Part shown: positions 54,001-57,000 of the stretch, piece by piece
Numbering within the stretch: the first letter of the stretch is position 1
How the letters are laid out: every line of letters begins with the position of its first letter
Source: a virus
Lineage: Duplodnaviria > Heunggongvirae > Uroviricota > Caudoviricetes
IMG/VR virus record: IMGVR_UViG_2897352509_000011
Reading direction: 5' to 3' (one strand)
DNA: 64,000 nucleotides
Position numbers: made by a program

Positions 54001-57000
54001 TTTTCGTAGGTTGCTCATATGCCCTCCATAGTAACCACGAATAAAAAAATACAATATGTACTTCTCAAATACAAGTAAAAATACACATTGTGCATGGATG
54101 GTTCCAGTACAGAGCGTAATAATAAGGACATGAAAATGAAATGGTATGAACTGGCTAGATCCAGAATGAAAGAGCTCGGCATAACTCAAGAGAAGTTAGC
54201 CGAAGAGCTAGGTATGACGCAGGGTGGAATTGGACACTGGTTGCGCGGATCTCGTCATCCATCTCTTAGTGATATTGGTGTGGTGTTTAAATACCTTGGT
54301 ATTGATAACATATCATTCAACCACGACGGGACATTTTCACCTGTTGGCGAATACTCATCGGCCCCAGTTAAAAAACAATATGAGTACCCTGTTTTTTCTC
54401 ATGTTCAGGCTGGGATGTTCTCTCCAGAACTCAGAACCTTTACCAAAGGTGATGCGGAGAGATTGGTAAGCACAACCAAAAAAGCCAGTGACTCTGCATT
54501 CTGGCTTGAGGTTGAAGGTAACTCAATGACCGCACCAACAGGTTCCAAACCTAGTTTTCCTGACGGGATGTTAATTCTGGTTGACCCTGAGCAAGCTGTT
54601 GAGCCCGGCGATTTCTGCATAGCCAGACTTGGTGGTGATGAATTTACCTTCAAGAAACTGATCAGGGATAGCGGTCAGGTGTTTCTACAACCACTAAACC
54701 CGCAATATCCAATGATCCCATGCAATGAGAGTTGTTCCGTTGTGGGGAAAGTTATCGCCAGCCAATGGCCTGAAGAGACGTTTGGGTAAAGAGGATAGAT
54801 GGAGTTTAATGGCCATGAGTATCAAGCGGTCAAAAAGAAGTTCATCTATTCATTGAAAGCATAAGGCCATCTGAGTATATCCGTAATGATCTGGATATTG
54901 TCTATAACATCAATGACCGGACGATAGATATCGGTGAGCAGCGTCCTGTATGGCAGGGTGAGGCAGGTGAAAAAACGTCCTGCCATCAACAAGAATCAAG
55001 TGCATCCGCTCTCTGGACAGATGGAAAATTTATTGGATGCAAAAAGATATGAAATAACACCTGTATAGCACGGAGCTTTCTCTGACCGATGCACTTGAAG
55101 TTGTTAGGGCTGACCCAGCCTGCTGTTTCTTTAGGTAAGAGAAAAGAGATTTAGGAGATGAAAGGTCGCAGAGGTGCGGCCTTTTTTATTGAGAGTGGAT
55201 CTTGAACGGAAATTCTCAAGACTTGAGTCTTGCATGCAAATCAATTCCTGGATAAACTCGATCTGAGTCAATAACTTAGAGAGAGAGCAAATGGCAAAGT
55301 CAAACGTTAGCGTGCAGGCATTCAAGGACTTCCTTGAAGAGCTTATGTCGCTGAACATAATGAAGGAGGCCACCGCTCGAAATTTAAAAAACTCATCCGC
55401 TCGCCTCTTAACGGTAGTCCAAGAAGAGGAAATGGGTGATGTTACTCAGCTTGATGTGAATGAGCTTGCCGAGCGATACATCAACGCAACTGAGCCGAAG
55501 CCTAGCGACAGCAGCATTACTGCATATAAAAGCCGCATGGAAAGTGCAATCAAAAAGTTTGTAGCTTTCCAGTCTGGTGAAGAAATCCCATACACTCCGA
55601 TTGACAAAGAATCCAGTGAGGAAAAAGATTTGACTGGCGAACCAACAAAAGTCGAAGGCAAGGCTAATGCACTTCATACCTATGATCTTCCAGTAGTTCT
55701 TCGACCTGAATCAGGGGTTACAGTAACGATTAAAGGCATTCCTAACGATATCACAAACGAAGAAGCCGAACGCATCTCTTCAATTCTGAAGGTTTACGTT
55801 CGGCCTCAATAATGCAAAAGCATTCAGCACAATGTCCAACTCCCCAGTCCGACATTGATGCTGTTTAACCAGAGCCTCCAAAAGGAGCCCTTGTTAAGGT
55901 ACACAATATTTGCGATGTAACCTTAGCGCGTCTGGTACATTTTTTCAAGCGGTTGTAGGGCTGCCGCCAATATGAGAAAACACAGATGTCTACATACAAT
56001 TTGAATGACCAATTCGATCGAGAAGTTCATGTGAATGCCTATGAACGGATAAGGCATGGAAATCTTGAACATGTGTGTGAGCATTATCGCTCAAGGCCAC
56101 ACCGCTAATCATCAACCCGGCCTCCATGCCGGGTTTTCTTTTCCTCTCGCCCAAAAAAACACATAACCAATTGTATTTATTGGAAAATAAATAGATACAA
56201 CTCACTAAACAACGCAATTCTGATCTCTCCTTACATCGCCGAGGCAATACACCCACGCTAAAAAACAATACTATTAAATACAAAGCGTTGTAAAAAAACG
56301 CCCCGTTTTAGAACAAATTGTATTGACCAAGTGAAGTACATATCGTACTATTTAACCATCAGCAGGACGCTGGAAGCCAAATGGAACAGACTGGCAGGCT
56401 CTTTAAACAACGTCGACTCTCGACTACGTGGCTGAAAAGCCAGATCACCCAACCACATAAGCTGTGGGATGCAATGCCGAAGCAACCGTCTCAGGAGGAG
56501 CTTCGAGATTGCATCGCCAAAGTTTATTCGGGAGGAATCTATGTCCAGAAAAACAGAATTTAAAGGCACCGCAGCTTCTCGCCGTAGAGCTCGTCGCGCA
56601 AACCTGCAAAGTCAGGAGGCGATTAGCTCCGACAAACTACACAGGCCAACCCCATCACGAGTGGTCTTACAATGCAAACGCAAACCAGCAATGAGAGCAG
56701 AAGTAATAACACTGACAACGTTGACCAGAAAATATGAAGGCTCAACTTGTCTTCCAAATGTAGCTCTTTACGCGGCAGGCTACCGTAAATCCAAACAACT
56801 GACAGCAAGATGACTTGTGTTGGTCGCCAGAAAATGAAATTAGGCAGCAAACCACTTATTTGAGGTGATATATGGAATTTCATGAAAGTGCGATTTGTGA
56901 TTTTCGCGCTAACGCAAATTCAGTAAAACCACAGCCAATTGCAGTTCTTTTTAAAACAATGGGTGCGTGGGCTGTTTTATGCTTCGCCGCTGACGACACT

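Follow-up and report, generated by a model that had tools for sequence, protein, structure and literature searches.

We analysed a 64,000-nt stretch of a caudoviricete virus (IMG/VR record IMGVR_UViG_2897352509_000011), referred to below as the window, which means the whole of this stretch, and focused on the slot between the repressor gene cI and the OL/PL region that precedes N. Positions 54790-56350 of the window are 100% identical to the immunity region of VT2-Sakai/Sp5, a Shiga toxin (Stx)-converting phage, and the same complete identity is found in the Stx1 and Stx2-II phages of Morioka V526, in Nil2, 1717, 2851 and in many others. The slot, in which lambda has rexAB, holds two genes in the orientation of cI, gene A and the much smaller gene B, separated by a structured RNA of about 150 nt, and PL, nutL and N all lie downstream (Table 1). 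A sequence-only reading of the window had described gene A as one acidic 173-residue open reading frame (ORF) of no recognised family, followed by a possible 40-residue ORF. Every feature that it listed lies at the coordinates given there. The description of gene A proved accurate (it starts with ATG and its product has an isoelectric point, pI, of 4.85); in place of a single gene with a doubtful companion, we found a conserved unit of three parts. The region from 55164 to 56145 is very probably an autonomous, horizontally mobile prophage 'moron' cassette composed of A, the RNA and B, bracketed by terminators and equipped with a putative promoter of its own.

The two genes are inherited together. 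Among 67 distinct cassettes drawn from genomes and IMG/VR contigs, a gene B of one of three types lies 148-175 nt 3' of gene A on the same strand in 66; adjacent, co-oriented and co-inherited pairs of small genes of this kind are a feature of toxin-antitoxin (TA) systems. Type 1 proteins, to which that of the window (MSTYNLNDQFDREVHVNAYERIRHGNLEHVCEHYRSRPHR) belongs, have 40-45 residues, a pI of 7.0 and homologues conserved as far as Symbiopectobacterium (PHROG 21154). Type 2 proteins have 47 residues, a CxxC...CxC motif and a pI of 9.0, and those of type 3 have 56-59 residues and are very basic (pI 10.5; PHROG 33859). Ratios of nonsynonymous to synonymous polymorphism (pN/pS) of 0.35 for type 1 (pooled), 0.12 for type 2 and 0.19 for type 3 reveal purifying selection in all three. 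Because B is kept downstream of A and is under such selection, the ORF that had been called possible is a real gene. It is usually omitted from current RefSeq annotation, and a search with B returned only 3 matches from protein databases, since such ORFs are rarely called. The B types are shuffled relative to the clades of A: the A protein of locus L040 is 77% identical to that of the window, yet its B is of type 2. Such swapping between closely related A genes resembles the swapping of toxins in TA families. In a Symbiopectobacterium prophage (L017, 5600-5745) a 29-nt direct repeat, CATGATGTAAATCGCGACGATTTCATCTA, occurs in the P4 hairpin loop of the spacer RNA and in codons 4-12 of B, which explains the longer A-B spacer of that locus.

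The spacer RNA of the window, which we term the 'beta' subtype, has a predicted folding energy of -54.4 kcal/mol (z = -4.08). Eight beta sequences, from E. coli, Salmonella and four viral contigs, were aligned; 95.9% of the alignment cells are paired, compared to 24-50% in slid controls, and three of the six pairs of helix P2 are fully compensatory, the window having ACCAGA/TCTGGT where others have arms of the GCTGTA/TACAGT type. An 'alpha' subtype at the same position, the best sampled (28 sequences), has five helices with 93.9% pairing (slid controls 35-47%); 14 of its 29 pairs are changed on both sides, and none of 500 shuffles was as good. Invariant U-G pairs indicate that the plus strand is the folded one. 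A covariance model of alpha finds a third, 'gamma' subtype (L052, E = 0.0024) but does not detect the beta RNA of the window (5.1 bits, E = 0.3). Because the alpha model misses it, we claim for beta, which has covariation of its own, only an apparent equivalence to alpha in position and architecture and not homology at the level of sequence. Rfam gave no match at E <= 1 in window positions 53500-57500 and none at the spacer of six related loci.

The Shine-Dalgarno (SD) sequence and AUG of B come after this RNA and are predicted to be mostly paired in most variants, with a mean unpaired probability of 0.38 overall and 0.17-0.32 in the window's type, the predicted partner often being the U-rich/CAAG tract after P2. 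In the gamma subtype a canonical terminator lies directly 3' of A. The predicted pairing of the SD-AUG region and this terminator suggest that B may be made at a much lower level than A. Two other readings were dismissed. A leader peptide in the spacer was ruled out, since the 18-codon ORF that spans the stop codon of A in E. coli and Salmonella has a frameshift in L040 and does not occur in alpha; and the region is not the Sp5 anti-small RNA AsxR, which lies 3' of stx2AB (PMC4104026). A 2026 survey of the Pas small RNAs of prophages does not mention the repressor/immunity region. Within P1, the 14-nt loop in Salmonella, L097, L095 and L050 is the exact reverse complement of that in E. coli and L040, a small inversion flanked by the stem arms that was first seen as a minus-strand BLAST match.

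The cassette moves as a unit. Of the 67 distinct cassettes, 33 occupy the cI-N slot and 28 are found at other sites: the nin region, groups of tail-gene morons or the neighbourhood of int. Some relatives are at other moron hot spots among lipoprotein-type morons. Homologues are present in prophages of Salmonella, Yersinia, Cronobacter, Proteus, Providencia, Morganella, Serratia, Pantoea and Erwinia; the slot copies in Proteus, Providencia, Serratia and Salmonella are co-oriented with cI and accompany repressors and replication genes that differ. Among 5,426 complete E. coli genomes 234 have the cassette, and all 245 copies are whole and at least 99% identical, a wholeness that partly reflects recent clonal descent. 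A block bounded by terminators, found at several prophage positions and having its own promoter (predicted only) shows the features of a moron. In Alphaproteobacteria gene A is chromosomal, sometimes solo between housekeeping genes and sometimes paired with B, as in Parasphingorhabdus, whose B protein (PPGFKYIFRPW...LYAKNFGFKAWPI) resembles types 2 and 3 by eye only. Distant A homologues lie beside TA pairs (CcdAB, DUF4160/DUF2442) in small islands in two of the four alphaproteobacterial cases inspected.

The junction between the downstream terminator and OL is 87-90% identical to the sequence 3' of rexB in lambda-type prophages and recurs in prophages whose slot is filled by DUF1828 or NYN-domain genes, so that it has the look of a recombination boundary common to a cargo hot spot. 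Because rexB, DUF1828 and NYN prophages have this junction in common, the cI-N slot is confirmed as a hot spot for cargo, in agreement with the rex-type position that the sequence-only reading had given to gene A.

Table 1. Positions of the cassette, its parts and its neighbours in the window
Feature	Position	Strand	Details
cro		opposite to cI	first in the layout
cI	54088/54136..54789	+	peptidase S24 and helix-turn-helix
Stretch between cI and gene A			500 nt, with DUF3024 pseudogene
DUF3024-family pseudogene	54799-55135	+	frameshifted; from a 113-residue gene
Block conserved between E. coli and Salmonella	55163-56140		terminator to terminator
Upstream terminator-like hairpin	55164-55181, T6 at 55182-55187	+	GGTCGCA-GAGG-TGCGGCC; -15.9 kcal/mol
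Operator-like array	55198..55233		three 8-bp half-sites
First half-site	55198-55205		GATCTTGA
Second half-site	55215-55222		TCAAGACT, inverted
Third half-site	55226-55233		AGTCTTGC
7-2-7 palindrome	55217-55232		CAAGACT-tg-AGTCTTG
GATC sites	55198 and 55260		the latter just past the putative -10
Putative sigma-70 promoter	55230..55258	+	TTGCAT-17 nt-TAAACT; 7/12 consensus positions
Gene A	55291..55812	+	173 residues; H0093 (AP000422), ECs1184 (ECs_1184, Sakai), Sp5 ORF23
Spacer RNA, beta subtype	55825..55967	+	about 150 nt
P1	55825-55863	+	with inner hairpin
P1 loop	55838-55851		14 nt between inverted repeats CAATGTC and GACATTG
P2	55868-55873 with 55931-55936	+	ACCAGA with TCTGGT
Small hairpin	55876-55887	+	
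P4	55895-55900 with 55920-55925	+	TAAGGT with ACCTTA
U-rich tract and CAAG	55940-55949	+	
P5	55949-55952 with 55964-55967	+	GCGG with CCGC
Gene B	55986..56108	+	40 residues, type 1; H0092
Downstream intrinsic terminator	56114-56135, T-rich tail to 56145	+	AACCCGGC-loop-GCCGGGTT; -14.3 kcal/mol
Terminator/OL junction	56114-56229		
OL/PL and nutL			downstream of the cassette terminator, before N
N	56541-56813	+	downstream of OL/PL and nutL
ECs1180	56872-57123	+	83 residues, without annotation
exo-like ORF	59182-59673		
IS3-family transposase OrfB	59480-60370	-	296 residues

Hairpins with T-rich tails bound the cassette on both sides, as had been noted from the sequence. The upstream one was not listed by the terminator consensus scan; its 26 bp remain 92-96% identical in loci of Proteus and Serratia where the DNA of gene A has only 69-76% identity. 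It forms the left edge and is predicted to insulate the cassette from the cI/PRM transcript. The downstream one, a strong terminator that the scan did call, is both the right edge and the junction with the OL/PL region, and all cassettes inspected, whether in the cI-N slot or not, have the same terminator, of the form ACCCGGC...GCCGGGTTTT, 3' of B. The sequence-only reading had suggested looking for PRM read-through as a source of expression. Given the intervening terminator and the 28 relatives away from cI, we judge this unlikely to be the main source; there is also a promoter-like element at a conserved position. That element was not called by the scan. Proteus (TTGCAA-17-TAGAAT), Serratia (TTGACT-17-AAAAAT) and distant clades (TTGATC(G)-17-TA(A/G)ACT) have comparable elements equally far from the ATG.

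Three half-sites, inverted and direct, lie over the putative -35, an arrangement that would be expected of an autoregulated promoter. The second and third make up the 16-bp palindrome reported earlier as perfect: its 7-nt arms are present as described, its 2-nt centre is not palindromic and, taken alone, it is within chance, there being 9 such 7-2-7 repeats in the window and about 3.5 in shuffles. Comparison is what gives it weight, through the arms, kept in Salmonella relatives at 7/7 and 6/7 bases, and through the word counts below; the third half-site overlaps the putative -35. In 32 non-redundant upstream regions of relatives, CTTGA/TCAAG was counted 47 times (8.3 expected, about 5.7-fold enriched), GATC 70 times (13.2 expected, about five times over-represented) and CGATCG 25 times (0.3 expected), and TTGAT/ATCAA was found in 31 of the 32. 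The half-sites might thus be operators for protein A, and the GATC enrichment suggests either Dam/SeqA-dependent control or a GATC-containing operator. GATC sites often fall within the -35 (TTGATC) or beside the -10 of cassette promoters.

Gene A is a hypothetical protein in every database record. Its product matched no Pfam, NCBIfam or PADLOC family above threshold, in keeping with the earlier statement that its family was not recognised, and its sole family match was PHROG 2602, 'unknown function'; a profile search of PDB sequences found nothing. Structure prediction, which had been suggested as a check, was run with AlphaFold on 25 close homologues. It gave a confident four-helix N-terminal domain (residues ~8-94) with a fold like the core-binding (SAM-like) domain of tyrosine recombinases, a disordered linker (residues 101-127, or ~96-128 in the domain layout adopted for gene A) and a C-terminal domain of about 40 residues (~130-168) composed of a beta-hairpin and a helix (beta-beta-alpha), for which no PDB match was found. 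Sequence identity to recombinases is 7-13%. The recombinase catalytic domain (R-H-R-Y, Phage_integrase) is absent; since only the 40-residue domain follows the linker in this protein of 173 residues and there is no PF00589 match, the gene A product is not a recombinase. The family grew from 44 enterobacterial clusters to 662 representatives at 50% identity after a profile search, Alphaproteobacteria among them; the 150 best of the 662 have 110-238 residues, mostly 160-210, and nearly all match over near-full length. Invariant residues lie in helix 2 (T-A-R-N-L-K-N-S), helix 4 (S..Y.SR..A..KF) and the C-terminal domain (P...RP..G....I.G.P.D.T..EAE.I). The linker is acidic in the window protein and basic in many relatives, so the idea that it acts as a DNA mimic was rejected. 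In two IMG/VR contigs (L099 and L100) a 1-nt deletion in a poly-A run at A codons ~108-121 truncates A after the N-terminal domain. An error of sequencing could account for this, as could a phase-variable tract or a real cassette that lacks A but retains B.

An alternative is that A maintains lysogeny. It could be a second repressor, comparable to the recombinase-like repressors MrpR and SroF that SPbeta-type phages have, or it could occupy core-type sites and so inhibit excision or integration; a cell that lost A would then die from induction of the prophage. Gene A differs from tyrosine recombinases, SPbeta MrpR and phi3T SroF in having no catalytic domain and in ending in the beta-beta-alpha domain described above. 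We regard this alternative as quite improbable: the cassette also resides at tail-gene, nin and int-proximal positions with unrelated immunity regions and in chromosomes outside prophages, A is accompanied by B and an RNA that a simple repressor would not need, and Stx phages of the 933W type, which have stk in the cI-PL slot, lack the cassette.

Published work supplies two observations on the gene itself. Mondal et al. (2016) made in-frame deletions of Sp5 genes in a K-12 lysogen, and ECs1184 could not be deleted, its loss being one that 'appears to be lethal' (PMC5155283). Gene B was absent from the ORFs of that study and so was left intact (PMC5155283). In a 2025 proteomic RNA-interactome the ECs1184 protein was quantified in uninduced Sakai at a false discovery rate of 0.065 and was not a strong RNA binder (PMC7618764), which agrees with the expectation that a gene co-oriented with cI would be expressed in the lysogen. 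We found no paper that assigns a function to gene A or describes the small gene or the RNA.

Taken with the anatomy, these observations lead us to propose, tentatively and as something short of an even chance, that the cassette is an autoregulated TA-like or abortive-infection module; the doubt attaches to the mechanism and not to the anatomy. Under this proposal A, which probably oligomerises through its C-terminal domain, would bind the repeated half-sites over its own -35 and in this way limit expression of the cassette in the lysogen to a low level. B would be the effector. The hairpins 3' of A, together with pairing of the leader RNA to the ribosome-binding site of B, would keep the output of B far lower than that of A, and A might also neutralise or repress B. 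If A were lost by deletion, or through turnover during infection or induction, B would be released and the cell harmed. The failure to delete A alone from an Sp5 lysogen would thereby be accounted for.

The strongest argument for such addiction logic is that the unit is self-contained and is found far from immunity regions in other prophages. Because 28 of the 67 copies lie outside the cI-N slot, the essential phenotype is more likely to arise from within the cassette than from the immunity circuit. We also count in favour of a TA-like module the core-binding fold without a catalytic domain, the A-B linkage, the selection on B and the swapping of its types, the covariation of the RNA, the predicted pairing of the SD-AUG, the gamma terminator, the promoter repeats and the TA-pair neighbours of distant A homologues. 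Several results weigh on the other side. No known toxin or antitoxin family was found for A or any B type in Pfam, NCBIfam or PADLOC, and TA or defence hidden Markov models matched neither protein. B is neither hydrophobic nor enzyme-like and has no toxin-like features, and profile-profile comparison with hhalign detected no homology among the three B types. A structured spacer of 150-175 nt is atypical of type II TA operons. The upstream motifs differ between clades that have the same putative recognition helix (ATARNLKNS), and this variation beside a constant helix weakens the operator assignment. In L099, A is frameshifted and B intact, and some alphaproteobacterial chromosomes have a solo A without B. 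Finally, ECs1180, which lies across PL-N from gene A, could not be deleted either (PMC5155283), and because it failed too, the failure with ECs1184 may be regional or methodological.

This last point also favours a further alternative, namely that the cassette is an ordinary, non-essential accessory moron, which regulates a host gene or carries a regulatory RNA, and that its undeletability is a technical or regional artefact. The failure of two genes flanking PL-N in the same study, the relative with a frameshifted A and the genomes with a solo A are all as this explanation would have it, and the RNA, the best-supported conserved element, could itself be the product. Nevertheless, A, the RNA and B are kept as a set across Gamma- and Alphaproteobacteria with B under purifying selection, and no E. 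coli copy is broken, partly through the clonal descent noted above. We assign a low probability to this explanation.

The sequence-only reading had favoured exclusion or defence, and a defence role for the cassette is possible. A specific version, a prophage-expressed module that blocks incoming phages by superinfection exclusion without addiction or toxicity to the host, strikes us as unlikely. In such a module A might bind foreign DNA, or a basic or His/Arg-rich B might act on phage transcripts as HK022 Nun does. It would be in keeping with the rexAB slot and the other cargo found there in related prophages, with a moron architecture that has terminators on both sides, with the presence of the protein in the lysogen, with relatives among lipoprotein-type morons at other hot spots and with the basic character of B types 2 and 3. 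However, the B of the window is of type 1 and is not basic, A and B match none of the 5027 models of PADLOC-DB v2 (0 families at E <= 1), alphaproteobacterial chromosomes have A in contexts that are not those of a phage, and the failure to delete A is left unexplained. The cassette proteins also gave no Pfam or PHROG match that would indicate homology to RexA, RexB or SieB; the related Salmonella locus L011 does have a SieB gene at another place, 3' of N. The undeletability speaks for addiction or regulation no less than for exclusion.

The lambdoid cI-PL slot has well-known cargo in nun, stk and bstA. The cassette is like lambda rexAB, HK022 nun, 933W stk and Salmonella BTP1 bstA in its position between the repressor and OL/PL, its orientation with cI and its presence in the lysogen, but is related to none of them in sequence or family. 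It further differs from cI-PL cargo in its putative own promoter, its upstream terminator, its build of protein, RNA and microprotein, and its many other loci. With type II TA operons it has in common a protein of DNA-binding type upstream, a small partner downstream, linkage, partner swapping, inverted repeats at the promoter and an upstream gene that reportedly could not be deleted; in those operons, however, the genes overlap, whereas the cassette has its 150-175 nt structured RNA and belongs to no known TA family. The immI operon of P1 and P7 (c4 RNA - icd - ant), in which a structured RNA from the operon leader controls translation of a small downstream ORF, is similar in having a same-strand structured RNA just upstream of a small ORF in a prophage-expressed operon, with a ribosome-binding site that is predicted to be occluded. 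It differs in that the cassette has no Rfam C4 match and in that the upstream partner in the cassette is a protein-coding gene. In the Symbiopectobacterium prophage L017, Rfam identifies a C4 antisense RNA, its a1/b1 target and isrK at 1531-1732 on the minus strand, some 3.3 kb before the cassette. They make up an immI module of the P1 type that has no relation to the spacer RNA.

The cassette thus falls outside every named family tested, whether recombinases, known TA or defence systems, Rex/SieB or Rfam. It might found an undescribed, widespread class of three-component addiction or abortive-infection systems, with a catalytically dead, recombinase-derived DNA binder, a translation-gating RNA and an interchangeable microprotein effector, represented by 662 sequences across Proteobacteria; we hold this to be rather doubtful. 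If true, the inability of the O157 Sakai Stx2 prophage to lose gene A would be explained, and the GATC-dense promoter would couple expression of the cassette to DNA methylation or replication state. Gene A itself entered catalogues in 2000, and its resistance to deletion was flagged in 2016. The novelty appears to lie in the architecture of three parts, namely a stand-alone protein with a core-binding fold, an unrecognised RNA and three overlooked microprotein families.

The Stx2-converting phage of E. coli O157:H7 Sakai, like its relatives, has the cassette in its immunity region, and Shiga-toxin release is governed by the stability of the lysogen. A prophage gene that was reported as undeletable, that has had no mechanistic lead since 2016 and that travels with an unannotated microprotein and an unrecognised RNA, presents a directly testable puzzle. 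The cassette also adds a candidate RNA family, three microprotein families that gene callers mostly miss and a stand-alone use of the recombinase core-binding fold.

Three neighbouring features deserve mention. The sequence that separates cI from the cassette seems empty but is a DUF3024-family pseudogene with a frameshift: its tblastn matches to L038, at 81-89% identity, are split over two reading frames. Intact copies of the gene are present in the close relatives L038 and L077 and in Proteus (L003). ECs1180 lies directly downstream of N. Further downstream, the similarity of an exo-like ORF to lambda Exo ends part-way, where the ORF abuts an IS3-family transposase gene, orfB, of an insertion sequence (IS) that we take to be IS629-like. 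Comparison with the ORF list of the Sakai Sp5 reference suggests that this is an IS insertion in exo (59182-60370) that is specific to the window relative to that reference.

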